Virus record (IMG/VR): IMGVR_UViG_3300036781_000814
Span: 1-60,411 of that record
DNA from: a virus
Taxonomy: Duplodnaviria > Caudoviricetes
Length of the DNA stretch: 60,411 nt
Direction: 5' to 3' (one strand)
In this document: positions 4,088-24,972 of the stretch, in pieces
Layout of the letters: each line of letters starts with the position of its first letter
Numbering within the stretch: position 1 is the stretch's first letter
The notes under the pieces: generated by a model
Seen by the model: only the letters and a program-made list of their open reading frames with translations
What the model was told of the DNA's origin: nothing
Database searches by the model: none
Made by a program: the position numbers and the translations under genes

Positions 4088-4328
4088 AGAAATGCTCAAG
4101 ACCGGCGGTAAGACCGTCGCCACCATCTACCATGTCAACAAGCCAGTCCATGTGGCGCCGACCATTGTCGACGTGAAGACGGTCGGCGGCACCAGGTTCT
4201 ATGTGGACAGCGCGGGCAAAAGCCATGTGGCAGATATGTATGACGCGGTCTTCGGCAAGCGTGACGCAAAGGCCATCAATCCTAAACCGAAGTTCGCCTA
4301 CCAGCGCACTTTTAAACCCAACAAATAG
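4080..4328 (+). CDS. Hypothetical protein
   Basis: 82-aa ORF overlapping the previous stop. Confidence 0.5.
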   Translation: MRKEMLKTGGKTVATIYHVNKPVHVAPTIVDVKTVGGTRFYVDSAGKSHVADMYDAVFGKRDAKAINPKPKFAYQRTFKPNK

Positions 4329-4330
4329 CC

Positions 4331-4699
4331 GTGCCATACCTCACTGAAGATATCAGCTCAACGCTCTATCGGGGACAGATCTACGCCACGGCCTGGACCG
4401 AGGTGGATCTCATCAGTGATCATGGCGGCATCCTCATTGTCAAACCGAAGATAGGAATTGGATTCTCTGTCTTCCCATCTCAATTAACCAATGAACCAGG
4501 CACAATCTCATTACGTCGGAGTTCAGACGCTGAGCACGAGGAGGCTGCAGCAATACGCCGACCGAAGCGGGCTCAGCGTGCAACAGGTAAAGGTCCTGCT
4601 CAGCTATCCCAGCAGCCATCGCTGCTACAGGATGATATCGGGAGCTTTGCGGGATTCCCAGACAAACGATCCGTCAGTAACACATCACCAAATTCATAA
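4331..4699 (+). CDS. Hypothetical protein
   Basis: GTG-start ORF filling the operon gap; competing frame at 4491-4706. Confidence 0.4.
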   Translation: MPYLTEDISSTLYRGQIYATAWTEVDLISDHGGILIVKPKIGIGFSVFPSQLTNEPGTISLRRSSDAEHEEAAAIRRPKRAQRATGKGPAQLSQQPSLLQDDIGSFAGFPDKRSVSNTSPNS

Positions 4700-4707
4700 A
4701 AACTAAA

Positions 4708-5175
4708 ATGGCAACAATTACCATTGACGACAGTAAGATCAGGCGCCTTTACAAGACCGCCGGCCAGGAATTCAAGGAGCTTCTGGAGGCCGAATTCGGT
4801 CCGAAATTTTTCTCCGGTGACATCACCGGACGCATATTAAGCTTCGAAGACGCCTGCGCTGAGGTTGGCAAGGATCCGCATGACCGCTTCTTTTCGGAAG
4901 CTCGTCCTCACGAAAACGCTATTCGGAAGATAGAGGTATGGGCGCTTGCTCTCAATGAAGGGAACGTGCTAAGCTATACAGATCCTTCCACTGAAAAGTG
5001 GCGCGTATGGGTAGTCTATGACGAGTCTATCTCCGGCTTCCGGTTGTGCGCTGTCGACTACGATGGCACGGGTACGTACTCGGGCCTCGGCTCCCGGACC
5101 GCCTTTGCTTCTGAGAAGCTGGCTCGGCATTTTGCCAAACATGCCATGCCGCTGATAAACGAGTCTTTGGCCTGA
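4708..5175 (+). CDS. DGR target protein 1 (small, contains VR1)
   Basis: Contains a 66-bp VR matching the TR at all non-adenine positions; VR ends in a GLGSR motif; paralogous to target 2 (SFEDAC vs SLEQAC). Confidence 0.9.
   Translation: MATITIDDSKIRRLYKTAGQEFKELLEAEFGPKFFSGDITGRILSFEDACAEVGKDPHDRFFSEARPHENAIRKIEVWALALNEGNVLSYTDPSTEKWRVWVVYDESISGFRLCAVDYDGTGTYSGLGSRTAFASEKLARHFAKHAMPLINESLA
5032..5097 (+). repeat. DGR variable repeat VR1
   Basis: 11 mismatches to TR 5629-5694, all at TR adenines. Confidence 0.95.
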
Positions 5176-5207
5176 TCTCATTTTTTAACCATTTACAACT
5201 CAATAAC

Positions 5208-5588
5208 ATGCAAATCGAAAGTTTAGAGCAGGCCTGCGAAATGCGCGGATGGGACGCTCAAACCGTGATCCCCGATATGTCCTGCTATCCGGAGAAGCAT
5301 CGCGCCGCCCTCATGGCTGTTGCCGAGATGATCCTGATCACGGACGCCGCCAGGGAAAAAGATCCTGATTGGAATAACCGCGACGAAGAGAAGCATACCG
5401 GCTGGATGGATATGGAGGTAGACAGAAACAACCCCACCGGCTTCCGGTTGTTCGCTGTCGTCTACGATTACGCGAGTGCGCACTCGGGCCTCGGCTCCCG
5501 GCTTTGCTTCGAAAGCGAGGGCGATGTGAGATACCATTTCGAGAAACATCTGGATAAGATGCGCGCCATGATGGTCATCGAGAAATAA
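5208..5588 (+). CDS. DGR target protein 2 (small, contains VR2)
   Basis: Contains a 66-bp VR; SGLGSRLCF motif; paralog of target 1. Confidence 0.9.
   Translation: MQIESLEQACEMRGWDAQTVIPDMSCYPEKHRAALMAVAEMILITDAAREKDPDWNNRDEEKHTGWMDMEVDRNNPTGFRLFAVVYDYASAHSGLGSRLCFESEGDVRYHFEKHLDKMRAMMVIEK
5437..5502 (+). repeat. DGR variable repeat VR2
   Basis: 12 mismatches to TR 5630-5695, all at TR adenines. Confidence 0.95.
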
Positions 5589-5594
5589 GATTTT

Positions 5595-5811
5595 GGGTTG
5601 TGCGGCGCCAGAGCGGCGAGGTTTTCGGTCCGGCTTCCAGTTGTACGATGTCAACTACGATAACACGAATACGAACTCGGGCCTCAGCTCCCAGCAATTG
5701 CAATTTAATTTTTCCGCGCAGCAGACCCTGCCAACAGGGCAAAAAAAGACTCATTAATAAGAGGCGTCAGTAGGGTGAATGCCCGGCCGCGACTCTTTGA
5801 AAGCAAAGGGA
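5595..5811 (+). ncRNA. Putative DGR template RNA (TR plus structured flanks/spacer)
   Basis: GTTGTGCGG (5597-5605) can pair with CCGCGCAGC (5714-5722) using two G-U pairs; hairpin CCCTG-CCAA-CAGGG (5726-5739) then A7; boundaries are approximate. Confidence 0.55.
5629..5695 (+). repeat. DGR template repeat (TR)
   Basis: Intergenic, just upstream of the RT; 17 adenines, four AAY codons and no adenine at a third codon position in the VR frame. Confidence 0.95.
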
Positions 5812-6942
5812 ATGAAAAGAATAAATGGACTTTACGATCGGATCATATCGCTGGAGAACCTCCGGGCGGCTGACACTATTGCCCGAAAAGGTAAGCGTCG
5901 GCAGTACGGGATATACAGGCATGATAGGAACCGGGAATCCAATATTCTGGATCTTCACTCTTCCCTGCAGTCCGAAACTTACCGGACATCACAGTATTCC
6001 ACCTTTAAGGTATTCGAGCCAAAGGAGCGGATAGTATTTCGGCTGCCTTACTATCCCGATCGGATCGTCCACCATGCCATAATGAATGTCCTGGAGCCGG
6101 TGTTCGTTGCATCGTTTACGACTGACACCTATTCCTGCATCAAGGGGCGAGGTATCCATGGCTGTCTTAGGGCAGTCAAAAGAGCGCTTCGGGATGCGCC
6201 GGGGACCAGGTACTGCCTCAAGTTGGATATCACCAAATTTTACCCATCCGTCAATCACAGGATACTAAAGAATCTTCTTCGCCGGAAACTCAAAGACGAG
6301 CGGCTCCTGGCGTTGCTGGACGAGATCATCGATAGTGCTGACGGGCTGCCGATCGGAAACTACCTGAGTCAATATTTCGCCAACTTCTACCTGACCGGTT
6401 TTGACCATTGGCTGAAGGAGACAAAGCGCGTTCGCTATTATTTCCGATACGCTGACGACTTGGTCTTCCTGGCGCCTGACAAGGGATCGCTACACCAGCT
6501 GCTGGCGGACATCCGGGAATATCTCTGGCTAACGCTTAAGCTCCAGGTCAAAGGCAATTACCAGGTTTTCCCTATCGGCAAGAAGAGGGGCAGAGGCCTT
6601 GACTTTATTGGCTATGTATTTTACTCACATCTCCATATCCTACTGAGAAAATCCACTAAAAAGAGGTTCGCACGGTTAGTAGCAAAAAGACCCAATCTCG
6701 CATCGATAGCGTCCTACTACGGATGGGCCTGTCACTGCAATTCAAAAAACCTGCTTAAAACCTTATTGGATGAAAAGTTTTTCAGATTTCGGCATCGAAT
6801 CAAGCCAGGAGGCATTCACAGGAGACAAAATAAAGATCGAGCGCCTATTGAATCTGCCTATCCTGGTGCTCAAATACAAAATCGGGCAGTCAAATTTCAA
6901 AGGCAGATTGCTCACGCTGCAGATAAAGAAGGGAGAAAGTGA
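5812..6942 (+). CDS. DGR reverse transcriptase
   Basis: RYADD catalytic motif, DGR-type GLPIGNYLSQ, YCLKLDITKFYPS, DRIVHHA; no maturase/endonuclease extension; likely start ATG 5812. Confidence 0.95.
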   Translation: MKRINGLYDRIISLENLRAADTIARKGKRRQYGIYRHDRNRESNILDLHSSLQSETYRTSQYSTFKVFEPKERIVFRLPYYPDRIVHHAIMNVLEPVFVASFTTDTYSCIKGRGIHGCLRAVKRALRDAPGTRYCLKLDITKFYPSVNHRILKNLLRRKLKDERLLALLDEIIDSADGLPIGNYLSQYFANFYLTGFDHWLKETKRVRYYFRYADDLVFLAPDKGSLHQLLADIREYLWLTLKLQVKGNYQVFPIGKKRGRGLDFIGYVFYSHLHILLRKSTKKRFARLVAKRPNLASIASYYGWACHCNSKNLLKTLLDEKFFRFRHRIKPGGIHRRQNKDRAPIESAYPGAQIQNRAVKFQRQIAHAADKEGRK

Positions 6943-7060
6943 GCATGTGGTCTTTACTGGTTCCGCTACGCTCATAGAAATGATTGAAAAGGTTCCTGCT
7001 GATGGATTCCCATTCCAGGCAACCATTATAAAGAAGGACGAACGATTCATTTTTACTTAG
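6770..7060 (+). CDS. Small beta-rich protein coupled to the RT 3' end (candidate DGR accessory factor)
   Basis: 96 aa, starts where the RT fold appears to end (overlap 173 nt); VVFTGS..LIEMI..FPFQATI. Confidence 0.7.
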   Translation: MKSFSDFGIESSQEAFTGDKIKIERLLNLPILVLKYKIGQSNFKGRLLTLQIKKGESEHVVFTGSATLIEMIEKVPADGFPFQATIIKKDERFIFT

Positions 7061-7084
7061 TTGAAGAACATCGAGATATAGGAA

Positions 7085-7513
7085 ATGCAAAGAAGGTCAG
7101 ACATAGTGAAAGAGTTACTGGAAGGCGCTTACATAATGTATGCCGGCAGCCGGCCGACCTTATACACCGGCAACCAGCAGCCATCTCTGCGACTGACGAA
7201 TGGCACCTATAAGTACTTGCGGAACGTGCTGAAGACCAGCAAAAAGAACAAACGACAGTATATCAGCATCCGGGCGATCCAGCAGCTACGCCGGCATCAC
7301 GGAATAAAGAAAGCCTATAAAAAGTTTCACAATGAAAAAGTTAATCATCAACTCCAAGGATCTGAAAGCCGCCCTGCAGAAGCTCAGCCAGGTAATCGTC
7401 AAAAAACCTGTCATCCCTGCTCTATCCAATATTTATTTGCGGGTCCGGGGCAACGAAGTGGAGTTGATCACGTCCGATCTGGAACTGACCATCAGTTATG
7501 TCTGCAAATGTGA
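7085..7513 (+). CDS. Hypothetical basic protein
   Basis: K/R-rich ORF; 3' part overlaps dnaN and may be non-functional read-through. Confidence 0.45.
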   Translation: MQRRSDIVKELLEGAYIMYAGSRPTLYTGNQQPSLRLTNGTYKYLRNVLKTSKKNKRQYISIRAIQQLRRHHGIKKAYKKFHNEKVNHQLQGSESRPAEAQPGNRQKTCHPCSIQYLFAGPGQRSGVDHVRSGTDHQLCLQM

Positions 7514-8411
7514 GTGCGTCGAGGAGTTCGAGCTGCTGCTGCCTTTCGAATTCGTTTCGAAGCTGGTTGGCCTTCTTCCCCAGCAGCCAATCACCATCTC
7601 TCTCCTTCCTAAGAATAAGGGAGAGATCATAGGCGAGGGAGACATTCACAAGCTGGGTACACTGGATAAGGTGGAAGACTTTCCGAAGATCCCCAACATC
7701 CCCTCCAGGAAAGCCGTTGACCTGGATGCGAGTTTCATGCGGTGGTTAGAACGGGCGATGGAATCGGTAAGTAAGGATAAGCTGCGTCCGGCAATGACAA
7801 AGGCGCTGCTGGAGATCAGCCCGGATGACATAACGATCGTCAGCACCGACGCCCACAGCCTCTTCCGCCATAAGTTTCCCGTTCAGTCGCTGATGACGGA
7901 GCAGATACTGATCTCTCCTAAGATCGCCCTATCCTTGCAAGGGTTTGAAACCACAAAGCTGTCCTGGAATGCGACACATCTTGCGATGAAAGCGGATAAC
8001 GTGACCATTATCGCCACCCGGCATAATGATAAGTTCCCCGATTACCGCGTAGTGATCCCCAACCAGCCGGCCAACCTCGATATCAGCCGCGCGGAACTGA
8101 TCAGCGGGATAAACCGCGTCAGCCTTGTCAGTTCCCAGCAGATTAAATTCCAATTCACCGGCGACGCCCTGGACAAACTGACCTTATATGCGGAGAATGA
8201 GGAAAGGAATTCGGCGGTAGAGGTATCCGTCAGCTATTCCGGCAATACTCCATCGATCGCATTCGCGCCGGAGCTTTTCAAAACCCTGCTTCATCAGATA
8301 CCTTTTTCGGAAATCCGGCTTCATATCGACTCTGCTGTCCGCGGGGTCCTCATCACAGCAGAAGAGGATCCTGATTATCTGGGAATGATTATGCCACTCT
8401 TACTTAACTAA
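7332..8411 (+). CDS. dnaN: DNA polymerase III beta sliding clamp
   Basis: 359 aa; PVIPALSNI, TSDLELTI, VSTDAHSL, KFPDYRVVIP, C-terminal MIMPL. Confidence 0.93.
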   Translation: MKKLIINSKDLKAALQKLSQVIVKKPVIPALSNIYLRVRGNEVELITSDLELTISYVCKCECVEEFELLLPFEFVSKLVGLLPQQPITISLLPKNKGEIIGEGDIHKLGTLDKVEDFPKIPNIPSRKAVDLDASFMRWLERAMESVSKDKLRPAMTKALLEISPDDITIVSTDAHSLFRHKFPVQSLMTEQILISPKIALSLQGFETTKLSWNATHLAMKADNVTIIATRHNDKFPDYRVVIPNQPANLDISRAELISGINRVSLVSSQQIKFQFTGDALDKLTLYAENEERNSAVEVSVSYSGNTPSIAFAPELFKTLLHQIPFSEIRLHIDSAVRGVLITAEEDPDYLGMIMPLLLN

Positions 8412-8918
8412 ATGAATATGAACTTTTTTACTGACCTGGCTGCCTACGGGCAGGGAATTGACATCAGTCTGCGGATCAAGGGCAAAAATGGGAAGCTGAC
8501 GATCCAGATCGAGCCCCAGCCCGCACATAACTCGACACTTAAGGCCTTGCGTGTTACGGGTAGCCCCGAGGATCTGGACCGGGAGTTTTCCGAAGCGGCC
8601 AAGGCTGCCAGCGTTGTTCCGGAAGGAGTGCAGAATAGCACGGCAGATATGGAAGCTGATGTTGCTTCGGCGGCTCATAAGCCAAAGGAAGAAGGCCGAT
8701 CCTTCCCTACAAAGAAGAATACCGGCAAGAAAAGCAACAAGGCTAAAAAGACGGTGCCGCCAAAGAAGGGAACTCCTCCGGTCTCAAAGACCTCTCCAAC
8801 ACCGGTGGATATGTTCAGTCCTGGCACCCCGGGGGCGGCGGTAGCTGACGAGCCCAACACCGACGACCAGGATGAAGTGGAGGAAGGCGGAGAGACCGAT
8901 GAAACCGAAACCGAATAA
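8412..8918 (+). CDS. PRTRC system protein E
   Basis: N-terminal FF..L, LRVTGSPEDLDREF motif, Lys-rich then acidic low-complexity tail; position before protein C. Confidence 0.8.
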   Translation: MNMNFFTDLAAYGQGIDISLRIKGKNGKLTIQIEPQPAHNSTLKALRVTGSPEDLDREFSEAAKAASVVPEGVQNSTADMEADVASAAHKPKEEGRSFPTKKNTGKKSNKAKKTVPPKKGTPPVSKTSPTPVDMFSPGTPGAAVADEPNTDDQDEVEEGGETDETETE

Positions 8919-8939
8919 TCACTTTAATATTTTCCTTAT

Positions 8940-9161
8940 ATGCCACTCGAAGTAACCAATCTCAAAAGAGCCTTTTCCTTTAAGAAGGACGGCAAACGCA
9001 TCGATCTAAGCGATCCCAACCCTGAGTTCTCTGTCCAGGAGGTGCTTCAGTTCTATTCCGGACAGCACTCCGAACTGACCACCTGTACCATCGATGGTCC
9101 TAAGATCGAAGGAGATAAGGCCATCTACGAATTTAAGACGACAGTAGGGACAAAGGGATAA
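8940..9161 (+). CDS. PRTRC system protein C (prokaryotic ubiquitin-like)
   Basis: 73 aa; LSDPNPEFSVQEVLQFYSGQHSELTT; ends TVGTKG. Confidence 0.9.
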   Translation: MPLEVTNLKRAFSFKKDGKRIDLSDPNPEFSVQEVLQFYSGQHSELTTCTIDGPKIEGDKAIYEFKTTVGTKG

Positions 9162-9189
9162 TCATGAAACTCAAAGATTTCAAAAAGTC

Positions 9190-10329
9190 ATGCCGAAAAA
9201 AGCTACCAGCAAAAGATCTTCACAGCAAGTTGGGCGCCGCGCTAAAAGGCGAGCTGCGGGACCACCATCTTCACGCAAGAGACCAGTACATGCTCCGCAG
9301 ACTGCCAGCATCGTCGGAGATTCCCTGGCTGCCATGAGGTTCAAACCGAAATCCGGAACGGAAGTGTTTTTTGCCGTAGGCGGCTTGGATGGCGATGATG
9401 CAGAGCGGATCTACGGAGATATCTATAAAGGATACACCCGGTTATACGAGCTTCTCAGGAAAGAAAGGATGGCCTTCGATCCGTTGAAAAAAGGCTTGTC
9501 TTACCCGGTGGCGCTCGGCTGGCTTCTTCGGCAGATCAAAACATTAGTGCCGGCTGAGTTTGATTTCAATATTGACTCGGAAGAAAACGGGTCAGGTTGC
9601 CACCTCACCATTTTCAAGGAATGCTATTGGCCCAATCAATTTCTTGCCCTGGAATGCGGACCCGCATTGCTTAAACTTGGCAAAGTAAACCGTCCCCTGC
9701 AAGCTCTCTTTATGAGTTTTATCCGGACTTTCGGCGGCGCGACATCCATTGACATTTGGACAGCAGGTATGATGGGTAACAGCCTGGAGATGCTCGACGA
9801 TAATATGTTGCAAATGGAAGGCGACCGCGATCCGCAAGACCTCGAGGAGATGGGAATCGAAATTAAGGCGCACCGATCGGGAATTCCATACAAACTTTCA
9901 AAGCAGATCAGAAAAGCTCCCTTAATGAGCCCTGATGAGCTGCAGCGCCGGGCTAAGCGGTATAAGGCCGGCAACCCCATTGCGAATCTTATTCACCAAG
10001 GCGCTGAATTACTCAGAGAGGGATGCAGCCTGATGGATTACACGTACTGGTCCAGTCCTGAAGACATGTACCACAATGCCTGCCTCCTCTTACTCGATCA
10101 GGCATCGTTCGTATGGGAATTCAACACCCATCTGATGAATGAGCATGAAGAATACCTCGACTGTCAGGCGCAAGAAGGTGTTCAGCAGCCTATCGTATCT
10201 GCCACAATCGATCGGGCGACGAAAAGCCTTGATATGAAAGCGCTTTCCAAAAAGGCAGACTGGCCGACGCGTTTGGTGGACTTCTTCAGCCGGGCGTATG
10301 AACTAACCGAAAAATTCAAACAGGCATGA
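9190..10329 (+). CDS. PRTRC system protein F-like
   Basis: Size and position between C and B; family motifs only weakly recognisable. Confidence 0.55.
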   Translation: MPKKATSKRSSQQVGRRAKRRAAGPPSSRKRPVHAPQTASIVGDSLAAMRFKPKSGTEVFFAVGGLDGDDAERIYGDIYKGYTRLYELLRKERMAFDPLKKGLSYPVALGWLLRQIKTLVPAEFDFNIDSEENGSGCHLTIFKECYWPNQFLALECGPALLKLGKVNRPLQALFMSFIRTFGGATSIDIWTAGMMGNSLEMLDDNMLQMEGDRDPQDLEEMGIEIKAHRSGIPYKLSKQIRKAPLMSPDELQRRAKRYKAGNPIANLIHQGAELLREGCSLMDYTYWSSPEDMYHNACLLLLDQASFVWEFNTHLMNEHEEYLDCQAQEGVQQPIVSATIDRATKSLDMKALSKKADWPTRLVDFFSRAYELTEKFKQA

Positions 10330-11051
10330 ACGAGCTTACCGACAACCTCATTAAAGAGTATCATCCCAGACTGGCGATCATCGCACACACCTCTGCCCTG
10401 AATGACTGGCGGGATGTATACCTCGAAAGCCACCCTATAAACGAGGCTGGGCAGATACTGGAAGGAAGACCCCTGAAGCAAGAGACAATCCAGGAAATAG
10501 TAGATGTGTTTTTTGATGAACGGCAGAACGCGGTCGCGGTCAGCGGTATGATCCCCGCCAATGTGCTCCAATTCGAGGTTTTACCCGGCGGCAGATACTC
10601 TCTGATGTGGTACCGCCCGGCAGAACGCCGCCGGATCTATTTTTCAGAGTCTCTTAATATTCCATCCGGTGAGGCCTGGATGCCTCCGATGATCTATCAT
10701 ACGAAGGACAGCCGGGGACTGGCGATGTATGCATTGGCAAACGACGACCGCCCTGCCGAATCAACCCGGTTATTTAGAGCGCCATTCCATAACATCTATG
10801 ACGATGGTGACGTCTGCCTGGGAAATGCGCAGGTAAAGAAGCCGTCTCAGAAGACCTACGCATCCCTTATGAAATATTGGGAAGATCTCTTTTGGCTGAG
10901 CGAGTTTACTCACCTCAATGGCACCGCCAATCCTACAAAAAGTAACCTCGCGTTGCTTTGGCCAAAGCTGGTGAAAAATAAGAAGCTGACCTGGTCGCAG
11001 TTGGATGAGCTCAAGCCCTATAAAAAACAAACCGTAAAAGACTTAATATGA
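10326..11051 (+). CDS. PRTRC system protein B (prokaryotic E2-like)
   Basis: WYRPAERRRIYF, LFRAPFHNIYDDGDVCLGN (candidate catalytic Cys), WEDLFWLSEFTH. Confidence 0.88.
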   Translation: MNELTDNLIKEYHPRLAIIAHTSALNDWRDVYLESHPINEAGQILEGRPLKQETIQEIVDVFFDERQNAVAVSGMIPANVLQFEVLPGGRYSLMWYRPAERRRIYFSESLNIPSGEAWMPPMIYHTKDSRGLAMYALANDDRPAESTRLFRAPFHNIYDDGDVCLGNAQVKKPSQKTYASLMKYWEDLFWLSEFTHLNGTANPTKSNLALLWPKLVKNKKLTWSQLDELKPYKKQTVKDLI

Positions 11052-11809
11052 TCGTTCACTATACCGAGAAATATCTGCTGAACCCCGTCCATAGGATCAC
11101 CGTCAACCTGGTGGGCCTCGGCGGCACCGGATCACAGATGCTGACCTGCCTGGCCCGGCTCAACGAAACCCTCAAGGCCTTGGGTCATCCGGGACTTCAC
11201 CTGAAGGCCTGGGATCCGGATACGGTAACCTCCGCGAACCTGGGCCGCCAACTCTTTTCTCCGGCAGATCTTAACCAGTCGAAGGCCATAGTGCTGACTT
11301 CCCGTATAAACAGGTTCATGGGCCTGGATTGGGAGGCTCATCCCCGGGAGTACAACGGAGGCGAACCCGCCAATATCCTGATCACCTGCATCGATACTGC
11401 CGCCGGGCGAGTTGCGCTTTCGGAACATGTCGTTGAACGCAAAACTGTAGAGGTAATAAAAAGACCCTATTACTGGCTGGATCTTGGCAACCTGCAGAAG
11501 ACCGGTCAGGCCATACTCGGAACTGTCAATAACATATCGCAGCCGAAAAGCGATGAACACACCACCCGGGCGACATTGCCCAATGTGGTCAAATTCTTCC
11601 CGCGGCTCAGGAAAATTAAAGAGGAGCAGCAGGGCCCCAGCTGCTCCCTGGCAGAAGCCATCAGAAAGCAGGATCTGTTCATCAATAGTGCGCTGGCGCA
11701 ATTCGGTGCCACTCTTCTTTGGAAGTTGTTCCGGGAGGGAATGATTCGGCACCATGGCTTCTATCTGAACCTTGATACTCTGCAGACCAATCCTATACCT
11801 ATTAAGTAA
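11048..11809 (+). CDS. PRTRC system ThiF-family (E1-like) adenylyltransferase
   Basis: VGLGGTGS, DPDTVTSANLGRQLF, ITCID, YWLDLGN, GPSCSLAEAIRKQDLFIN. Confidence 0.92.
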   Translation: MIVHYTEKYLLNPVHRITVNLVGLGGTGSQMLTCLARLNETLKALGHPGLHLKAWDPDTVTSANLGRQLFSPADLNQSKAIVLTSRINRFMGLDWEAHPREYNGGEPANILITCIDTAAGRVALSEHVVERKTVEVIKRPYYWLDLGNLQKTGQAILGTVNNISQPKSDEHTTRATLPNVVKFFPRLRKIKEEQQGPSCSLAEAIRKQDLFINSALAQFGATLLWKLFREGMIRHHGFYLNLDTLQTNPIPIK

Positions 11810-11834
11810 CCAATCACTCTAAATAAGACCAAAG

Positions 11835-12242
11835 ATGAAACTGAAGTATTTCTCAGAACAAACGATGCCCCGGAATATGGGGGGGGGGAAATCGTGCATT
11901 CCCCGGGTCAATTTTGGCAACAAAGGCGCCGTTGCCTTCAATAAGGAAGCCGGTAAGTTGCTTGGCTTCAAAGTCGGCGACAAAATATCTCTCGGCCAGG
12001 ACGAGGAGGATCCGGAAAACTGGTACTTCTTCCTCGACAAGGACAACGGGTTCGCGGTACGCCAATATAAGGACGGCGCCTGGCTCTTTAATCACGCGGC
12101 CCTGGTTTCAGCCTTCGTGGAGTCGAAAGGTTTTGATGCCGGCAAAACCATAAAAGCGTTGATCGCTGGCCAACCAACGATCATGAAAGGCGACAAAGCC
12201 CAGACGAAGTACTGGGGTATCCTGGTCCGGCCGAGCATATAG
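11835..12242 (+). CDS. Hypothetical protein (G10 tract near the 5' end)
   Basis: 135-aa ORF. Confidence 0.6.
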   Translation: MKLKYFSEQTMPRNMGGGKSCIPRVNFGNKGAVAFNKEAGKLLGFKVGDKISLGQDEEDPENWYFFLDKDNGFAVRQYKDGAWLFNHAALVSAFVESKGFDAGKTIKALIAGQPTIMKGDKAQTKYWGILVRPSI

Positions 12243-12260
12243 TTTAAAACACCTTTCTAT

Positions 12261-12464
12261 ATGACCGACTATTATTTATTAACCCAGCTGGTCGAGAAGA
12301 CCAGGAAGTTGAGAGAGGCGCAGGAGGCTTACATCAAACAGCCTGGTGATCCGAAAACGGATCAGTTGAAAAAGGCCCATTGGGCAGAGCGAAAGCGGCG
12401 GGAGGAGGATGTAGATCGTCTTCTTCCGCTGATCAAGACCGCCCGACCGGAGCTATTTTGTTGA
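12261..12464 (+). CDS. Hypothetical protein
   Basis: 67-aa helical ORF. Confidence 0.5.
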   Translation: MTDYYLLTQLVEKTRKLREAQEAYIKQPGDPKTDQLKKAHWAERKRREEDVDRLLPLIKTARPELFC

Positions 12465-12508
12465 CGCCTTAGTTTTTAATCCGTACCCGCCAATCCTAAA
12501 AAGCCGTT

Positions 12509-13687
12509 ATGGGCAGATCCGTTAAGCCAGGTATTACATTTTATAGGATGGACAGCGGTCACATCCTGAATAAGAAGATCAGACTTTTGTTCAACGAGTT
12601 CGACAGCGACGGGTATTATATCTGGCATGCCCTGGTAGACTATGGCTACGGCAAGTGGGGGTATTATTTCGATATGAACGACAGGGACGAGCTGGAGCTC
12701 TTTGCGTCCGAATACTGTAAGAAAAAAGTGAGCGCCATCCAGGAAGTGATTGCCGGGTGTATCCGTCGGGGTCTTTTTGATAAGACCGTGGCCGATATGT
12801 TTGGGATCCTTACCTCCGACATGATGCAGGAGACTTTCCTTATTGCGACGTCTGAGAGGCGTGCTAAGGATACGTACTTCGAAATGCGACAGGAATGGGT
12901 GCTCATTGATCTTTCTTCGGATGTTCCAAAGAATATAGTCATTGTTCCGGGGAACAATTTGATTGTTCCGCCGAAAAATCAAGAAAATCCGCCGAACAAT
13001 CCACAGATTAGAGAAGATAAGAGTAGAAAAGAAGAGAGAGGGGCGCCTGGGGCGCCACGCGATCGGGACAATGGGGAGGGTAGTGGGAGGAAAAAATTCA
13101 TTCCTCCGGTATTTTCCCAAGTGAAGGCCTACTTCCTTGCCACGATAGGGGCGCCCGACCATCCAAAGCACTGGCCTGAAGACAAGTGCGTCAACCAGGC
13201 GAGTTTGTTTTTAGATCACTACAAGGGAAATGGTTGGATCCAGGGGCAGGGTCGGGGCCGGCCGATCAAAGACTGGGAGGCGACAGCTCGCAACTGGATC
13301 AAACGGGAACTCGGCGGCGAATTCAAATTGCCAGAGCGAGCCAAGCCCGAGCCACCAACACCGAAACGCCAGGAAGATAACGGGCCGAAGCTCACCCCGC
13401 TACAGATCGAGATCAATGCCCTCTTTGACCTATGGTCTGAAAATCCGGAGCACTGCACGGTGATCAGCGTTACCGCCGATCACTACAACCTTCTGAAGAG
13501 CGCCGGCAGGGTAGCGTTTTCGCCGACGGAGACAGAGACGATCAAGCAGCTGGCGCTGGCGCACATGCAGGAAAAGAAGCTGGAAGGCGAGAGCTATCAG
13601 ATCCGACTGATGAAGTCGTTCGGCGTCCTCGAGTTTTTCAAGCAGCAGAAGGCCGCCGGCAACATTGAAATTTTCGAATTAAAATAA
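12509..13687 (+). CDS. Phage replication initiator (DUF4373/Lin1244-like N-terminus)
   Basis: MGR..KPGITFY..D...NKKIRLL....GY.IW..L...Y...GYY; C-terminal FIPP..V..YF, HY..NGW, KDWEATARNW; internal iterons. Confidence 0.8.
   Translation: MGRSVKPGITFYRMDSGHILNKKIRLLFNEFDSDGYYIWHALVDYGYGKWGYYFDMNDRDELELFASEYCKKKVSAIQEVIAGCIRRGLFDKTVADMFGILTSDMMQETFLIATSERRAKDTYFEMRQEWVLIDLSSDVPKNIVIVPGNNLIVPPKNQENPPNNPQIREDKSRKEERGAPGAPRDRDNGEGSGRKKFIPPVFSQVKAYFLATIGAPDHPKHWPEDKCVNQASLFLDHYKGNGWIQGQGRGRPIKDWEATARNWIKRELGGEFKLPERAKPEPPTPKRQEDNGPKLTPLQIEINALFDLWSENPEHCTVISVTADHYNLLKSAGRVAFSPTETETIKQLALAHMQEKKLEGESYQIRLMKSFGVLEFFKQQKAAGNIEIFELK
12921..13040. promoter_or_regulatory. Putative replication origin: four iterons at 21-bp period plus purine-rich tract
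   Basis: TGTTCC-N3-GAA(C/A/T)AAT-like units at 12922, 12943, 12964 and 12985 (last one degenerate); perfect ATTGTTCC-GG-GGAACAAT inverted repeat at 12941-12958. Confidence 0.65.
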
Positions 13688-19016: not shown

Positions 19017-19316
19017 ATGTTTCGACTATTTAAAGGAAAGGAGCGAATGAAATTGATCGCAAAAAAGACGATCATCTATCAAGGGTATGAGATTATCATG
19101 GAGGTATTTGAGCTGAAATTATCCGAATGGTCAGCCACCATCCTCTATCGAATACGGTATACCGTAGCGGGCTATGAGCGAGATGAGGATGTCGATATTA
19201 CTCAGCTTCAAAGAATGCTGGACCGGCAACTCGACAGGGCTCGTACCTATGTCGAACGTCTGGTGGGCAAAAAAGGCCTGGAATCTATCGCTCTGGAGTG
19301 GTTAAACAAACAATAA
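19017..19316 (+). CDS. Hypothetical protein
   Basis: TAATG-coupled to the ATPase; start uncertain. Confidence 0.5.
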   Translation: MFRLFKGKERMKLIAKKTIIYQGYEIIMEVFELKLSEWSATILYRIRYTVAGYERDEDVDITQLQRMLDRQLDRARTYVERLVGKKGLESIALEWLNKQ

Positions 19317-21112
19317 TGCAAGACAAAACCATTAACATTGGCATCAGCTGCCATCTTCAACGGCTTATCGAGACATGCGCCCTTGTTCAAGCCTCGCGCG
19401 GTGGAGGCAAATCCTACCTTGTCCGGAAAATGGATGAGGAGATAAGCGGGCACTGCCAGCAAATCATCATAGATCTTGAGGGTGAATTTGTTTCCCTTCG
19501 AGAAAAATTCCCATTTGCTCTTCTTTCCGTGGAGGGAGGTGATATTCCGCTGAATATACGCCACGCCGGAACCTATGCCCGTAAGTTCATGGAAAGCAAC
19601 ATGTCGGTGATCATCGACTTATCTGACCTGATGCCGGCTGATAGGATCCTCTTCGTGCGCGACTTCTGCCATGCGCTGATGAATCTCCCCAAGCACCTAT
19701 ATCATCCCCTTCTGGTGTATATCGACGAGGCGCATGTCTTTTGTCCACAGGACGAGAGTGCTATCTCTTACGCCTCCATAATAGATATGGCTGCCAGGGG
19801 AAGGAAGAGGGATATCGGGCTGGTCCTGTCCACCCAGCGCGTAAGTAAGCTGCACAAGGACGTGACAGCCGAACTGCTCAATAAGGTTATCGGCAGGACC
19901 GGCCAGGACATTGATCAGGCTCGTGCCGCAAAGGAGCTGGACTGGAAACAATCAGACAAGACCCTACTCCGCAAGCTCGAGCCCGGCGATTTCTATTGTT
20001 TTGGGCCGGCATTCCAGGAGGAAACGGTTAAATTCCACGTCGCTCCTGTTGCCACCTCCCACAAAAAGACTGGCTCCATGGGTACCGTAACCCCACCGAC
20101 GCCCGATGCCATCAAAGCGATGCTGCAATCTCTCCAGGATCTACCAGAAGAAGCCGAACGCGAGCTGGAGACTAACGAGCAGCTGCGCAATGAGGTTACC
20201 CGGCTTACAGCTCAGTTGAAAAAGGGTATTATTTCGCGGCCCGACAATAGCGAGGAGATAGGGCGGCTGAAAGGGGAAATCAACACAAGGGACGAAGTAA
20301 TAAATTCGATGACAATCGTCATCGACCGGCTTGAAAGCATACTTTCTGAGATCAAAGACTTGGCCGATAAGCATGCAATATCTATTCCCGGAACCTTTCA
20401 ATCTCAGGCAATGCGTTCCGGTCCTGAGCATCCATTCGAGCCTGCTATTGTTGGGGATACACTTGGGCTCTATGCGACGATCAAATCTTCTATGCCGCGC
20501 CATGCTCCCGGCTCATCTGCTCCAACGCTCCTCGATAATGAAATCGAAGCGGTCGAGGCGGAGAAGATGCGTCTCGATCAACAGCTGCGTACCCCGCGGG
20601 TGAAGTCACTATCACCTGGCTTGCAAAGTGGAGTCAGTCCGATCGGTAAATGCGCCCGCGCGATCTTGCACTTCCTGGCTTCCCATAACCGGGAGTTCAG
20701 CAAGGCGCAAATCTCTGTGGCGACAGGTTACTCTGCGACATCCAGCAGCTTTAATAATGCCCTGGGGGAGCTGAATACCAAAGGCCTTATTATCCGCGGC
20801 TCAAAAATAAAGGCAAACCGGGACAATCTTGCTGCCATTACCGAGGCGGTCGGAGCGGTGAAAAAGCAGCCATATAATATTGCCACTTTCAAGGATAAGC
20901 TCAGCAAATGTGAAGGCGAGATATACGACATCCTTTTGGCGAACCCTCGCGGCAAATTCTCGAAAGAGTCCCTTGCTGGCAAGACACCCAGTAGCTATTC
21001 GCCAACGTCGAGCAGTTTCAGTAACGCCCTCGGTCGCTTAAATACGCTTGAGTTGATCAGCAGGGATAAAGGGGTAATTACCCTCAATCCTGAATTACTG
21101 GAACTACTATGA
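19316..21112 (+). CDS. HerA/FtsK-like (DUF87) P-loop ATPase with coiled coil and two C-terminal wHTH-like repeats
   Basis: ASRGGGKS Walker A, IIDLEGEF, VYIDEAH Walker B, RGRKRDIGLVLSTQR. Confidence 0.85.
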   Translation: MQDKTINIGISCHLQRLIETCALVQASRGGGKSYLVRKMDEEISGHCQQIIIDLEGEFVSLREKFPFALLSVEGGDIPLNIRHAGTYARKFMESNMSVIIDLSDLMPADRILFVRDFCHALMNLPKHLYHPLLVYIDEAHVFCPQDESAISYASIIDMAARGRKRDIGLVLSTQRVSKLHKDVTAELLNKVIGRTGQDIDQARAAKELDWKQSDKTLLRKLEPGDFYCFGPAFQEETVKFHVAPVATSHKKTGSMGTVTPPTPDAIKAMLQSLQDLPEEAERELETNEQLRNEVTRLTAQLKKGIISRPDNSEEIGRLKGEINTRDEVINSMTIVIDRLESILSEIKDLADKHAISIPGTFQSQAMRSGPEHPFEPAIVGDTLGLYATIKSSMPRHAPGSSAPTLLDNEIEAVEAEKMRLDQQLRTPRVKSLSPGLQSGVSPIGKCARAILHFLASHNREFSKAQISVATGYSATSSSFNNALGELNTKGLIIRGSKIKANRDNLAAITEAVGAVKKQPYNIATFKDKLSKCEGEIYDILLANPRGKFSKESLAGKTPSSYSPTSSSFSNALGRLNTLELISRDKGVITLNPELLELL

Positions 21113-21468
21113 CGGCAATATCCGATATCGCCTTAGCCATAAGGAAAAGGCGCTTCCCGCTGCATGACGAAAAGCAGCTGCAGAAAGAAATCGGCGAGGC
21201 CCTGGCATCTATCATACAAGGCGGTACCCTGAGCCGTGAGTTTGTCCTGGATAGGAATAACATCATTGACTTCTTCGTCGATCCTGGTATCGGCATCGAG
21301 GTGAAGATCAAAGGATCAAAGCGAGACATTTTCCGACAGTGCACCAGGTACTGCCAATTTGATATAGTGAAATCTCTAATTCTCATTACCAACCTTAGCA
21401 TGGGCTTTCCCGAACAGATAAACGGGAAGGACTGCTATGTGATAAAACTCGGCACAGCATGGCTTTAA
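21109..21468 (+). CDS. PD-(D/E)xK nuclease-like protein
   Basis: E.QLQ..I, IIDFFVDPGIGIEVK, Q..RY. Confidence 0.6.
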   Translation: MTAISDIALAIRKRRFPLHDEKQLQKEIGEALASIIQGGTLSREFVLDRNNIIDFFVDPGIGIEVKIKGSKRDIFRQCTRYCQFDIVKSLILITNLSMGFPEQINGKDCYVIKLGTAWL

Positions 21469-23123
21469 AGACTTTCGGCAATCTACGGTATCATCCGGAC
21501 GAGAACAGGTGGGGACTGCATGACCTCAAACCCCACGTCTGCATTAAGCTAAAGGCATTGTTTCCCAAGATTGGGAAAGGGGCAATAGCACCCTTCTTTT
21601 TCCAAAATACCCCCGAGATCTGCCACGATCTGCTTTGGTTTATCGATCGCTACCCACTGGCTGCTGCCGACGATGACCTGGACCGGTTAATGGATGGTCG
21701 TAATCAGCAGCGTGCGACGGTGGCGGCCCTGGAAAGCATCCTAATGCCTGATTATGATCCGCCGATGATCACCCTTAAGCCCGGGTTCACACCGCGCAAC
21801 TATCAGCTGCAGGCCGCCCGGTTCGATGCAGTGCAAAAGCGCTGGCTCTGTGGTGACGATCTTGGACTGGGAAAGACCTTGGAAGCGATCCTTGCTCTGA
21901 GGAACCAGGCTAAGCTGCCGGCGCTGGTATGCGTACAGACTCACTTACCAAAGCAGTGGAAGGAAGAAGGGATTGAAAAGTTTACCGACCTGCGCACACA
22001 TATCATCAAAGGGACGAAGCCCTACAGCCTTCCGGAAGCCGACGTATACATTATAAAATACTCCTGTCTGTCGGGGTGGGTAGATGTATTTCAAACGGGC
22101 TTTTTTAAGTCTGTCACCTTTGATGAGATCCAGGAGCTGCGGATAACGGGCAGCGACAAGTACTGCGCTGCGAAAGTTCTTTGTGAAAATGTCGAATACG
22201 TTCTGGGGATGTCGGCCACTCCGATTTATAATTATGGGGACGAGATCTTCAATGTGCTCGACCTGATCAATCCCGGCTGTCTGGGCAATCTCGACGACTT
22301 TCTTAGGGAATGGTCAGGCAGCTGGGGCAGGCATGCGAAAATAAACGATCCGATAGCGTTGGGTTCTTATCTCCGGGACAATTATCTATTCCTTCGACGC
22401 ACCCGGGCGCAAGTAGGCCGTGAGCTGCCGCAGGTCAATAAGATAGTCCATACGGTCGGGTATGATAGCGGAGAGGTGAAGAAGTCTCAGGATATCGCCC
22501 GTCAACTGGCGATGAAGGTGATCGGCGGATCCTTTATGGAACGTGGTCAGGCAGCCCGGGAACTTGATTCCCTGCTCCGGCATCAGACGGGCGTATCAAA
22601 GGCGCGCGAGGTCGCCGCGTTTGTCAGGATCCTGCTGGACAACAATGAACCCGTGCTGTTGGCTGGATGGCACCGGGATGTCTATGATATTTGGATGGCA
22701 GAGTTGCAGGAGTTTAAGCCTGTCATGTATACTGGCAGCGAAACGCCAAGGCAAAAGGAGCTTGCAAAGCACGCCTTTATTACCGGCGAGACCAACCTTT
22801 TTATCATCAGCCTGCGGTCGGGTGTCGGCCTCGACGGCCTGCAGCAGCGATGCAAGACGGTCGTGATTGGAGAGCTGGACTGGTCGCCAATGGTCCATAC
22901 TCAGCTGATCGGCCGAGTCGATCGGGAGGGGCAGGAGAACCAGGTTACAGCCTATTTCCCCGTCAGCGAGTTTGGGTCGGACCCAGTTATTATCGATCTG
23001 CTGGGACTGAAGTCCTCCCAGGCTCACGGGATCATCGACCCGCTGACGGCCATCCCGGAACAATTCAGCGACGAGAGCAGGATAAAGCTTTTGGCGCAAT
23101 CATATTTAAACAACAAGCTGTGA
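21459..23123 (+). CDS. SNF2-family helicase/ATPase
   Basis: GDDLGLGKT, FDEIQ, MSATP, FLRRT, SGVGLDGLQ, QLIGRVDREGQ. Confidence 0.92.
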   Translation: MALKTFGNLRYHPDENRWGLHDLKPHVCIKLKALFPKIGKGAIAPFFFQNTPEICHDLLWFIDRYPLAAADDDLDRLMDGRNQQRATVAALESILMPDYDPPMITLKPGFTPRNYQLQAARFDAVQKRWLCGDDLGLGKTLEAILALRNQAKLPALVCVQTHLPKQWKEEGIEKFTDLRTHIIKGTKPYSLPEADVYIIKYSCLSGWVDVFQTGFFKSVTFDEIQELRITGSDKYCAAKVLCENVEYVLGMSATPIYNYGDEIFNVLDLINPGCLGNLDDFLREWSGSWGRHAKINDPIALGSYLRDNYLFLRRTRAQVGRELPQVNKIVHTVGYDSGEVKKSQDIARQLAMKVIGGSFMERGQAARELDSLLRHQTGVSKAREVAAFVRILLDNNEPVLLAGWHRDVYDIWMAELQEFKPVMYTGSETPRQKELAKHAFITGETNLFIISLRSGVGLDGLQQRCKTVVIGELDWSPMVHTQLIGRVDREGQENQVTAYFPVSEFGSDPVIIDLLGLKSSQAHGIIDPLTAIPEQFSDESRIKLLAQSYLNNKL

Positions 23124-23227: not shown

Positions 23228-23806
23228 ATGGCCGCCCCTAAAGGCAATCAATTTTGGAAGCTGCGCTCAGAGCATGGGCGTGAAAAGCTTTTTGCAAGCC
23301 CTGATCTTCTCTGGGAGGCTGCTCAGCAATATTTCAACTGGTGTGATGGGCATCCCTGGTATATGGTGGAGGCAGCTCGCCAGGGTGCGCGCCTCACTAA
23401 AACCAAAGACGGGCAATACAAGGAACCGGATAAACTACTGAAAATTCCTACAGTAATTCCTTATACGCTTACAGGCTTCTGTCTGTACATTGACGCCAGT
23501 AAATACTATTGGGGAAATTTCCGCAAGCAATTGCATAAGGCGTTGGATAATAACAAGAACGACAAGTTATCTGAAGATTTTATTGGGATCATAGACCGTA
23601 TTGAGCTCATAATTGAAACGCAAAAGTTCACCGGCGTTGCCGTTGGTGCATTCAAAGGCAATATCATTTCGAGCGAGATGGGCGCTGCTGCTAAAATTGA
23701 GGTGCGCCAGGTGGATAAAGAAGGCAATGATGTCAAGGCGCCGCCGGCTCTGAATATTGTTGTACAAAGGGCCGCTGCGCCGATCGCCGAGTCGGAGGAG
23801 GAATGA
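23228..23806 (+). CDS. terS: Terminase small subunit (P22 gp3-like)
   Basis: MAAPKGNQFWKLRSEHGREKLF..P..LWEAA..YF.W; upstream of TerL. Confidence 0.88.
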   Translation: MAAPKGNQFWKLRSEHGREKLFASPDLLWEAAQQYFNWCDGHPWYMVEAARQGARLTKTKDGQYKEPDKLLKIPTVIPYTLTGFCLYIDASKYYWGNFRKQLHKALDNNKNDKLSEDFIGIIDRIELIIETQKFTGVAVGAFKGNIISSEMGAAAKIEVRQVDKEGNDVKAPPALNIVVQRAAAPIAESEEE

Positions 23807-24972
23807 CGACCGGCCCACTCTTCAAAAAATTAATAGAATGCCTCAGAAGGATTGTTGTATGCCAGGGCGGTGGTGATGCTGGTAAGACGGTTGCTATCCT
23901 GCAACTGTTCGCTACAAAAGCCATCACTGAACCCGGGAGCATATTGACAGTAGACGGCGAGGACATCCCCAATTTGAAAGCCGGAGCCCTGCGGACGTTT
24001 CAACGATATGTAATTCCTGATCCGGAGATAGCCTCTTACCTAGTGAGCTATAATAAGACCGAACGCGTCTATACCTTTAAGGGAGGCAGCATCATTGAGT
24101 TTGTCAGTTTCGAAGATGAGCAGGACGCCCGCGGATCCGAGCGCGACTACCTATATATTAATGAGGCCAACAGCCGGACCTATTCCTATTTCTGGCAATT
24201 GCAGCGTAAGACCCGCAAGCAGGTATTCATTGACTATAATCCGACATCTGCCTTCTGGTGCCACGAAAAGCTGCTGGATAGGGCAACCATCGAAAAGCAG
24301 TTCATTGGCCAGGTCCAGCTATTCATTACCGATCACCGGCACAATCCCTTCCTCAGCCAGGAAGAACACAATAATTACGAGAACATCGGGGATCCGGAGC
24401 TGTTCCAGGTGTATTCCCGCGGCAAGACCGGCAAGGTTAAGGGCCTCATCTTCGCCCACTTCAAGAAAATCGAGGTGTTCCCTATTGATATTGACCGTAT
24501 TATATGGGGGATTGACTACGGGTATACAAACGATCCGACGGCGCTGGTGAAAATCGGCGTGAAGCAGCGGAAGCGGTACCATCATGAATGCTGCTATGAG
24601 CCTGGCATCACCGCTGACCGCCTGCAGGAGATACTCGTTCTTAATGGGTATCAAAGCGACCAGGACATTTACAGCGAAGCCGATCCTAACATGATCAACC
24701 AGCTCCGAGTGCTGGGGCTTTCTGTTTACCCAGCCATCAAAGGTCCTGGCAGCCTGATCGCCAGCATATCCAAGGTTAAGGAGTTTGAATGCTTTTATAC
24801 AGCCACGTCCGTCAACTTCGAAAAAGAGATCAATACCTGGAAGTGGATGATCGCAGAGGACGTGCTCACCGGCAAAAAAGTGATGACCAATGTTCCTATT
24901 GACGGCAACGACCACTGCTGCGCAGCTTCCCGGTATGGTATATATACGGATAGTTTCCGGGGCGCCGCATAG
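23803..24972 (+). CDS. terL: Terminase large subunit (PBSX-like)
   Basis: QGGGDAGKT, YINEAN, DYNPT, GIDYGYTNDPTA, DGNDHCCAASRY. Confidence 0.92.
   Translation: MTTGPLFKKLIECLRRIVVCQGGGDAGKTVAILQLFATKAITEPGSILTVDGEDIPNLKAGALRTFQRYVIPDPEIASYLVSYNKTERVYTFKGGSIIEFVSFEDEQDARGSERDYLYINEANSRTYSYFWQLQRKTRKQVFIDYNPTSAFWCHEKLLDRATIEKQFIGQVQLFITDHRHNPFLSQEEHNNYENIGDPELFQVYSRGKTGKVKGLIFAHFKKIEVFPIDIDRIIWGIDYGYTNDPTALVKIGVKQRKRYHHECCYEPGITADRLQEILVLNGYQSDQDIYSEADPNMINQLRVLGLSVYPAIKGPGSLIASISKVKEFECFYTATSVNFEKEINTWKWMIAEDVLTGKKVMTNVPIDGNDHCCAASRYGIYTDSFRGAA

Follow-up and report, generated by a model that had tools for sequence, protein, structure and literature searches.

The IMG/VR virus record IMGVR_UViG_3300036781_000814 (60,411 nucleotides, nt), referred to in its whole length as the window, represents a prophage from a Bacteroidota bacterium of soil, in which a PRTRC cassette lies between the sliding-clamp gene dnaN and a replication-initiator gene. 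This cassette is a complete ubiquitin-like (Ubl) conjugation module in the JAB-less Bacteroidota form of PRTRC, placed in the replication operon of the prophage, and its sequence indicates that it is probably active. The features read from the same sequence that carry this reading are the gene set, the catalytic residues of the enzymes, the free Gly end of the Ubl, the absence of a JAB peptidase, and the conserved linkage between dnaN and the gene of PRTRC protein E.

In the mechanism that we infer, which combines catalysis through thioesters with docking of E on the clamp and with an action at the replisome, the ThiF-type E1 would adenylate the exposed C-terminal Gly73 of the Ubl, protein C, which would move to Cys199 of the E1 as a thioester, be handed on to Cys164 of the E2-like protein B, and finally be attached by B to lysines of target proteins. 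Since no JAB peptidase is encoded, the tag would need no maturation step and could not be removed by the element itself. Protein E would act as an adaptor whose tail, composed of the motif PVDMF and acidic residues, recruits the system to the phage's own clamp, encoded just upstream, and tagging would be placed on clamp-loaded, replicating phage DNA. Candidate targets are the Lys-rich linker of E itself, the partners of the clamp, and the clamp. Taken as a whole, this reading of an active, element-irreversible Ubl conjugation within the phage replication programme, with E as probable clamp adaptor, is put forward tentatively, at a level slightly short of even. A wider reading, judged less likely than not, is that in Bacteroidota phages and conjugative elements at large E recruits to the beta clamp a protease-less Ubl system, which would tag the clamp, its clients or E itself on the DNA of the replicating element.

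Identity of the Cassette Proteins

The genes of the cassette lie on the plus strand within an early or replication block (7332-13687) that extends from DnaN to a Lin1244_N-type replication initiator in the order DnaN, E, C, X, F-position protein, B, ThiF E1, a 135-amino acid (aa) protein and the initiator. DnaN, the DNA polymerase III beta sliding clamp (7332..8411, 359 aa), contains three Pfam clamp domains and matches TIGR00663 with 137.8 bits (cut-off 137.65) and phrog_947, a processivity factor, with an E-value of 2.4e-49, and its residues P243 and P355 are invariant in 9 homologues. Protein E (8412..8918, 168 aa) begins with an ATG at 8412, directly after the dnaN stop codon TAA that ends at 8411. 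Protein C (8940..9161, 73 aa), of the ubiquitin-like beta-grasp type, matches Prok_Ub with 83.4 bits (cut-off 25) and TIGR03738 with 63.6 bits (cut-off 45.95), and is followed by the open reading frame (ORF) X (9164..9337, 57 aa), which is conserved among related loci, and by the F-position protein (9190..10329, 379 aa as the longest ORF). The E2-like protein B (10326..11051, 241 aa) matches Prok-E2_D with 118.4 bits (cut-off 25) and TIGR03737 with 116.4 bits, under the cut-off of 131.45 of the latter, and the ThiF-family, E1-like adenylating enzyme (11048..11809, 253 aa) matches TIGR03736 with 249.8 bits (cut-off 144.75). The overlaps of the ATGA type that join F with B and B with ThiF were read, like the dnaN–E junction, from the DNA.

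The cassette is a JAB-less variant of PRTRC, that is, of operon type 6d of Iyer et al. 2006, and its assignment to the PRTRC-type Ubl/E2/E1 cassettes, taken alone, is regarded as highly probable. A first-pass annotation, made from the letters alone, had proposed this identity and a HMMER search against the PRTRC, Prok_Ub and Prok-E2 models, which, once run, matched C, B and ThiF strongly, placed E below threshold and left F silent. The coordinates, the junctions and the motifs that it had quoted (TVGTKG in C, PFHNI...VCLG in B, GLGGTG and PSCS in ThiF) are all correct. Its gene list likewise holds for the genes named, but the conserved ORF X had been overlooked and the label "protein F" rests on position alone, the F-position ORF having no Pfam or NCBIfam match at E <= 0.01. 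None of E, C, F, B and ThiF belongs to a PHROGs family, and a sequence search of solved structures found none related to B (best E-value 0.47) or to ThiF.

Catalytic Residues of the E1 and E2-like Proteins

The enzymes of the cassette look active, as far as conservation of their residues indicates. The ThiF protein contains G23xGGxG28, the pair R67-Q68, D116, and Cys199 within PSCS (nt 11642-11644), and each of the residues G23, G25, G26, G28, R67, Q68, D116 and C199 is at least 95% conserved among 22 E1 sequences. In B, the catalytic Cys164 within DVCLG (nt 10815-10817), N156 and the downstream H196 are likewise each at least 95% conserved (22 sequences), and an E2-like protein with the conserved Cys is always present in the aligned loci. 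The E2 motif PFHNI...VCLG of the first-pass annotation is present in B, but its His, H155, is restricted to the phage clade and replaced by Phe or Tyr elsewhere. Both this restriction and the conservation of H196 agree with the description of type 6d E2-like proteins in the relevant passages of Iyer et al. 2006 (PMC1779556), in which the classical His is absent and a conserved His follows the Cys.

No JAB or ParB Gene in the Window and a Ubl with a Free Gly End

Neither a JAB peptidase nor ParB was found in the window. Prok-JAB (PF14464) matches only once in the 7.49-Mb assembly, the completeness of which is 99.99% as judged from marker genes, and this match lies on contig C7 and not on C25, the contig of the window. 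Matches of ParB_N and PRTRC_parB (TIGR03734) are confined to contigs C47 and C19, below cut-off, with none on C25, and PRTRC_A (TIGR03735) and PRTRC_D (TIGR03739) have no match in the genome, both models being silent in the control genomes too. Prok-JAB was found in none of 8 related viral records, three of them 93-100% complete, versus 2 of 2 proteobacterial PRTRC phages used as controls, and a PRTRC_A-type hidden Markov model (HMM) built here matched 0 of 80 viral loci. The profile searches thereby bear out the proposal of a PRTRC-type Ubl/E2/E1 cassette that is carried by a phage without JAB or ParB. The lone genomic Prok-JAB match (89.3 bits; C7:35031-36204; L001, L003) precedes by about 500 nt an open frame of 508 aa that matches ThiF weakly, and the two probably form an E1/JAB system of the host that has nothing to do with the prophage.

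The C protein of the window ends in G70-T-K-G73 with the stop codon immediately after, and in an alignment of 22 C proteins the conservation of each of these four residues reaches at least 95%. All 20 Bacteroidota-type loci encode a C protein without extension, in which Gly is followed by the stop, and Gly is the last residue of C in 73 of the 74 viral relatives in which C was detected (from the best 80), whereas C is extended by 56-60 aa in both of the JAB-bearing proteobacterial phages, Dina and BgVeeders33. Loss of the peptidase and loss of the extension coincide and therefore support the view, already expressed in the first-pass annotation, that this Ubl needs no processing.

Linkage of dnaN and the Cassette among Relatives

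In IMG/VR, 266 stretches encode a relative of ThiF, and the best 80 of these 266 constituted the viral survey. The order dnaN-E-C-(X)-F-B-ThiF occurs in all 7 close IMG/VR loci with upstream sequence (ThiF 54-66% identical), in one genome of the same family (G059), and in Flavihumibacter petaseus NBRC 106054, Paraflavitalea sp. CAU 1676 and Dysgonomonas hofstadii DSM 104969, the loci of Flavihumibacter petaseus and Dysgonomonas hofstadii repeating two of those from IMG/VR. Over the nine distinct close loci, the end of dnaN falls -14 to +32 nt from the start of E, and E is separated from C by anything between 5 and about 1,000 nt, a space that can contain inserted genes. Of the best 80 viral relatives, 29 have dnaN as the gene directly before E and 3 have it elsewhere on the same strand; in 11 of the 80, the sequence upstream is truncated. 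A lack of conserved dnaN adjacency had been named in the first-pass annotation as what would speak against its proposal, and the adjacency turns out to be conserved, in all of the close relatives with upstream sequence and in these 29 of the best 80 viral ones.

In a quick ThiF tree of the best 80 loci (midpoint root, support by the Shimodaira–Hasegawa-like approximate likelihood ratio test only, careful search unfinished), the dnaN-linked loci are scattered over the JAB-less group, and the starred branches force at least 3 label changes. Upstream of E in 10 viral loci without dnaN were found two helicases, one N6 methylase, one DUF6633 protein and six family-less proteins, and there is no single alternative partner of E in this position.

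Some arrangements depart from the common order. In L139 (about 4200-9740), dnaN lies between C and X/F and not upstream of E, and it follows ThiF at a distance of 4-5 kb in L150 and L154. The inserts between E and C include ORFs of 89-126 aa (L008:4376-4645, L009:6814-7107, L011:7625-7945 and L013:7715-8095), two of which look alike at their start by eye, and none is present in the window.

Protein E and a Possible Docking on the Clamp

Protein E is composed of a folded N-domain (approximately residues 1-67), a Lys-rich disordered linker, a motif that resembles clamp-binding peptides, and an acidic tail. Searched with an HMM of the N-domain, 54 of 60 loci have an E protein, the two proteobacterial phages among them; the match of the window sequence is circular because this sequence is part of the HMM. 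The AlphaFold 2 (AF2) model of the N-domain, built from 53 sequences, has a predicted local distance difference test score (pLDDT) of 71 and an alpha-beta3-alpha topology. Its best fold match is T7 Gp1.2 (7u65_G; Z 7.6, with 73 residues at a root-mean-square deviation (rmsd) of 2.7), and dsRBD and HPF-like chains come next with Z 4-6; Z remains under 8 and, therefore, only a common alpha-beta3-alpha arrangement is recognized and no function is drawn from it.

The motif P131-V-D-M-F135 (nt 8802-8816) is followed by 33 mostly acidic residues. In most relatives, a short [LIM]F motif ends the tail of E or sits inside it, as in TPSLF-stop, HPSLF-stop, QTSLF-stop, EPTLFD-stop and IPDLFANV-stop, and [SDT][LIM][FWY] is found within the last 50 residues of 48 of 54 E proteins, many of which are close kin. 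The same motif, fixed beforehand, occurs in 19 of 27 distinct viral E proteins encoded next to dnaN, the rate being 18.6% in the 936 other ORFs and 5.9% in tails that had been shuffled. According to passages of PMC11139829, the canonical beta-clamp motif is Q-phi-x-[L/M]-[F/L], in which the Gln is important though not essential, and acidic flanks help clamp binding. When the DnaN dimer was folded together with residues 111-168 of E, the score was 0.55 versus 0.01 for the best control, which counts as weak support, where the mark is passed by 58 of the 80 solved complexes tried and by 2 of the 110 mismatched pairs; the runs agreed in at least 78% of contacts and the pLDDT of the partner was at least 44. 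These models and motifs suggest weakly that E may dock on the clamp.

Fusions of E with other domains occur among the relatives. The E proteins of L009 (5313-6821) and L011 (6156-7613) contain an N-terminal N6-adenine methyltransferase-like domain, with an NPPF motif and an N6_Mtase score of 20.1 bits, just below the cut-off of 20.4, together with a Cys-rich module, which is found alone in the E protein of L028 (6448-7365). The fusion with a methyltransferase in L009 and L011 suits a tether that would bring enzymes to the clamp.

Weight of the Evidence and Alternative Explanations

Several observations weigh against a conjugation system that is brought to the clamp by E. The E protein of the window scores 19.5 bits with PF19556 (cut-off 26) and 24.7 bits with TIGR03741 (cut-off 37.95), under both curated cut-offs, while relatives aligned with it in L009, L028 and L027 reach 43.7 and 51.2 bits (both above cut-off) and 264.6 bits, respectively. 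PVDMF fits positions 2-5 of the clamp motif, without the canonical Gln at position 1. Over the last 70 residues, the motif fixed beforehand is found in 31 of 68 distinct viral E proteins and in 12 of the 41 that do not adjoin dnaN; a looser pattern reaches 50 of the 68, but it was chosen after looking. As for the fold, the mark was passed with a score of 0.60 or less by only 7 of the 80 solved complexes plus both of the passing mismatches, and a result graded as weak support is wrong in most cases if the guess had not been a likely one from the start. Moreover, the fold reported no contacts that would place the peptide in the clamp pocket, and the pass may reflect likeness to known structures because clamp–peptide complexes have already been solved. 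The loci compared are kin, and their counts overstate independence. On the cassette strand, dnaN is missing within 9 kb in 48 of the best 80 viral loci, and it is missing within 8-10 kb in 10 of 11 loci of the phylum survey and in 34 of 38 loci on genome contigs, those inspected having SSB and DUF932 upstream instead; an element-encoded clamp is thus not required. Finally, literature searches, in which supplements were excluded, found no functional study of, or experiment on, any PRTRC system.

The same cassette could serve establishment or counter-defence by tagging host proteins, e.g., defence factors, early after DNA entry, in which case the place of the cassette in the replication operon and beside dnaN would mean early co-expression only. 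This explanation, which we consider unlikely, draws on the presence of the same JAB-less cassette next to SSB and DUF932 genes in non-phage Bacteroidota loci, neighbours of a type typical of the first-entering region of conjugative elements, and on the N6-methyltransferase domains fused to E or adjoining it, given that orphan methylases are classical anti-restriction tools. It also finds support in the fast evolution of the F-position protein and of the E tails, and in the report that PRTRC protein B is a recurrent mutational hotspot in a gut prophage of P. vulgatus that also has a diversity-generating retroelement (DGR), as stated in passages of 10.64898/2026.10.01.756045. Nevertheless, no protein of the cassette matches a known defence or anti-defence family: the models of anti-phage Ubl systems (CBASS Cap2/Cap3, Bil and 6A-MBL; PADLOC and NCBIfam) gave only weak E1-E2 matches on the Rossmann part of ThiF (residues ~13-131), of which the best in PADLOC had an E-value of 6.6e-07, the other seven proteins had no PADLOC match, and NF058523 scored 18.1 bits against a cut-off of 320. 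A word search of a paper on plasmid leading regions (PMC11541004) found none of the words ubiquitin, JAB, DUF932 or sliding clamp, and counter-defence would leave both the very tight dnaN-E junction and the [LIM]F motif unexplained.

That the clamp, of phage or host, is itself the substrate, as in PCNA ubiquitylation, had been put forward as a possibility in the first-pass annotation. The conserved adjacency of dnaN would suit it, as would the fact that the clamp becomes the nearest protein if E docks on it, but no analysis singles out the clamp as acceptor, many related cassettes lack an element-encoded clamp, and the Lys-rich linker of E and other clamp clients would be equally near. This claim is unsupported and appears improbable, the evidence pointing weakly to docking of E on the clamp instead. 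A role as accessory in partition or maintenance seems more improbable still; it would follow the "ParB-related" name, the linkage of canonical PRTRC to ParB and the annotation of a PRTRC cassette in a B. gladioli prophage, termed a partitioning cassette in passages of PMC13366799 (2026), but no ParB was found in the window or on its contig, and the element is an integrating prophage with an integrase. The last possibility, that of a sulfur-carrier system of the ThiS/MoaD type with a ThiF/MoeB-type enzyme and no protein conjugation, would account for a ThiF-fold E1 and a beta-grasp protein ending in Gly. It is very improbable in view of the constant presence of an E2-like protein with a conserved Cys, the scores of the thiF/moeB equivalogs, which are far below cut-off (NF006395, 32.4 against 159; TIGR02354, 19.9 against 152.2; TIGR02356, 18.2 against 275.25), and the absence of cofactor-biosynthesis genes among the scanned window ORFs. 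Conjugation within the replication programme, with E as candidate adaptor, is the reading retained here.

The F-Position Protein and ORF X

The canonical F protein is not recognized in this cassette by its models. TIGR03742 is silent in the window and in the genome, and alpha-hel2 matches 0 of 14 homologues. The same TIGR03742 detects the F proteins of Dina (352.8 bits) and BgVeeders33 (103.5 bits), but 0 of 3 relatives, and hhalign gives a probability of 1% between the F-position protein and the F proteins of these two phages. Residues 1-51 of the F-position protein are disordered, and a mostly helical body extends from about residue 52 (nt ~9343), with an AF2 pLDDT of 82. Foldseek against the PDB returned 0 matches at E <= 0.001, and the wide search with VIA-align did not go beyond a Z of 5.1 (54 residues at an rmsd of 2.4), so that no fold is assigned.

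ORF X begins 2 nt past the C stop codon in the window, and at or across it generally. The TGA of X overlaps an ATG that is in frame with F, and F is read at -1 with respect to X. All 10 of the phage-type loci examined and 9 of 10 SSB-linked loci contain X, the tenth of the latter, L029, having no short C found as anchor. Mean pairwise identity is 0.40 for X versus 0.25 for the overlapping F frame, the F frame is stop-free across X in 23 of 32 distinct loci versus 0 of 32 for the third frame, and the own ATG of F is kept in 10 of 10 loci. Both the X and F frames thus look coding, since they stay open or conserved and the third frame does not.

X has no match in Pfam or PADLOC. Its homology with the 61-aa ORF of BgVeeders33, or with the C-terminal extension of proteobacterial protein C, of which X would be the cut-off tail, was considered and not shown: an HMM of 19 X sequences searched against 390 stop-to-stop ORFs found nothing at the expected places, the best match (E-value 0.94) being elsewhere, and what is left is a resemblance of the ending of X (LPxxxxIPxLP) to LPSADLPVLP and PASLQVLA. 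A programmed -1 frameshift from X to F was set aside, there being no conserved slippery site in 10 junctions and the ATG of F being kept in all of them.

Prophage Setting

Downstream of ThiF, a conserved 135-aa protein (11835..12242, plus strand) has homologues in L006, L007 and L008 and no family match in Pfam, NCBIfam, PHROGs or PADLOC. Its membership of the cassette is uncertain, and it shifts its place, following ThiF in the window, L006 and L007 and lying between E and C in L008 (4626-5024). The replication initiator or replisome organiser (12509..13687, plus strand) matches Lin1244_N with 58.7 bits as well as the replication-initiation families phrog_20437 and phrog_2562, and an initiator is also found downstream of ThiF in L006, L009, L010, L013 and L038. 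A HerA/DUF87-like ATPase (19298-21112) and a SNF2-family helicase (21459-23123) are also encoded by the phage. No DNA polymerase turned up among the scanned window ORFs, and the phage clamp may, therefore, use host polymerases.

The structural genes include those of the large terminase (23803-24972), the portal (26517-27875), the major head protein (28659-30080) and the tape-measure protein (34982-39223), and a tyrosine-type integrase (59095-60411, minus strand) is located at the right end of the window. A tRNA-Met gene (2669-2741) lies close to the left end. The borders of the prophage are undefined because no direct repeat able to mark attachment sites was found in the window. Among the sequencing runs listed, none of RNA contains the stretch, and one of DNA contains it and may be its source.

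Immediately upstream of dnaN there is a DGR (4708-6942), whose reverse transcriptase (5779-6942) matches RVT_1, with group-II/Drt3a-like matches. Its A-rich template repeat (5630-5694) corresponds to variable repeats at 5033-5097 and 5437-5501, which fall in the C-terminal parts of two small family-less ORFs (155 and 126 aa), and every mismatch read between the template and the first variable repeat sits at a template adenine. L011, too, encodes a reverse transcriptase ahead of dnaN, 57% identical to that of the window. The idea that gene B contains a DGR variable region, as the preprint on the gut prophage might suggest, was rejected, since copies of the template occur only at 5033-5097 and 5437-5501.

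Comparison with Known Systems

The cassette of the window has in common with PRTRC systems (TIGR03734-TIGR03742; type 6d in passages of PMC1779556) its Ubl C, its E2-like B with the Cys and a His further down, its E1 of the ThiF type, an E protein, which scores here below the curated cut-offs, and, at the place of F, a helical protein; carriage by mobile elements is likewise shared. In the window, unlike in canonical PRTRC, the JAB protein A, ParB and protein D were not found, C is made mature, the F-position protein is not recognized by TIGR03742 or alpha-hel2, unlike those of both proteobacterial phage controls, an additional, overlapping ORF X is present, and dnaN is fused into the operon. 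PRTRC entered the catalogues in 2006, and its annotation is found on many plasmids, on integrative and conjugative elements and now on phages. The first-pass annotation had described it as known mainly from plasmids and conjugative elements, but carriage by phages was already on record, as the proteins E, C, F, B, A and ThiF of Ralstonia phage Dina (NC_055026) are in GenBank. Dina has the same order, E-C-F-B-(A)-ThiF, and no dnaN is annotated beside its cassette in the 12 kb read. In Dina and in Burkholderia phage BgVeeders33 (OK665841), ThiF is 40-42% and B 27-31% identical to the proteins of the window, and the N-domain of E is found by the same HMM; these two phages keep a DUF2016 + Prok-JAB protein A, and their C protein, of 129 aa, is extended past GxKG. 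In phage records, tblastn detected ThiF relatives in 7 of 50,697, and a DNA-level search returned a single match of 151 nt, in BgVeeders33. A phage-borne PRTRC is thus not new in itself; what is added here is the conservation of the dnaN linkage, the architecture of E with its clamp-binding-like motif, ORF X, and an F-position protein unmatched by the PRTRC_F and alpha-hel2 models.

The CBASS Cap2/Cap3, Bil and Bub systems share the prokaryotic E1/E2/Ubl logic with this cassette (PMC10097602, PMC10557695 and PMC11601596). However, these systems defend the host against phages and include a peptidase, and Cap2 unites E1 and E2 in one protein, whereas the cassette of the window is encoded by the phage, has separate E1 and E2 proteins and is peptidase-less. 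Furthermore, Bub is described as forming oxyester intermediates (PMC11601596), whereas both catalytic Cys residues are conserved in the window cassette. Like the clients of the beta clamp described in passages of PMC11139829, E has in its disordered tail a short [LM]F peptide flanked by acidic residues, here with no Gln at position 1, and its PVDMF resembles the internal motif QADMF of E. coli Pol III alpha.

The dnaN linkage and the clamp-docking-like peptide of E provide PRTRC with a concrete and cheaply testable hypothesis, the JAB-less form is the simplest version of PRTRC to reconstitute, and close relatives of the cassette are carried by the cultured hosts Flavihumibacter petaseus, Paraflavitalea sp. 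and Dysgonomonas hofstadii. In eukaryotes, ubiquitylation and SUMOylation of PCNA place Ubl machinery at the sliding clamp and would represent a functional analogue of what is proposed here, although the enzymes of the window are not orthologous to Rad6/Rad18. If the link with the clamp holds, Ubl signalling would take place at the replisome outside eukaryotes, and the cassette would be a prokaryotic, mobile-element counterpart of the PCNA-centred control by ubiquitin and SUMO, as well as the first function assigned to PRTRC.

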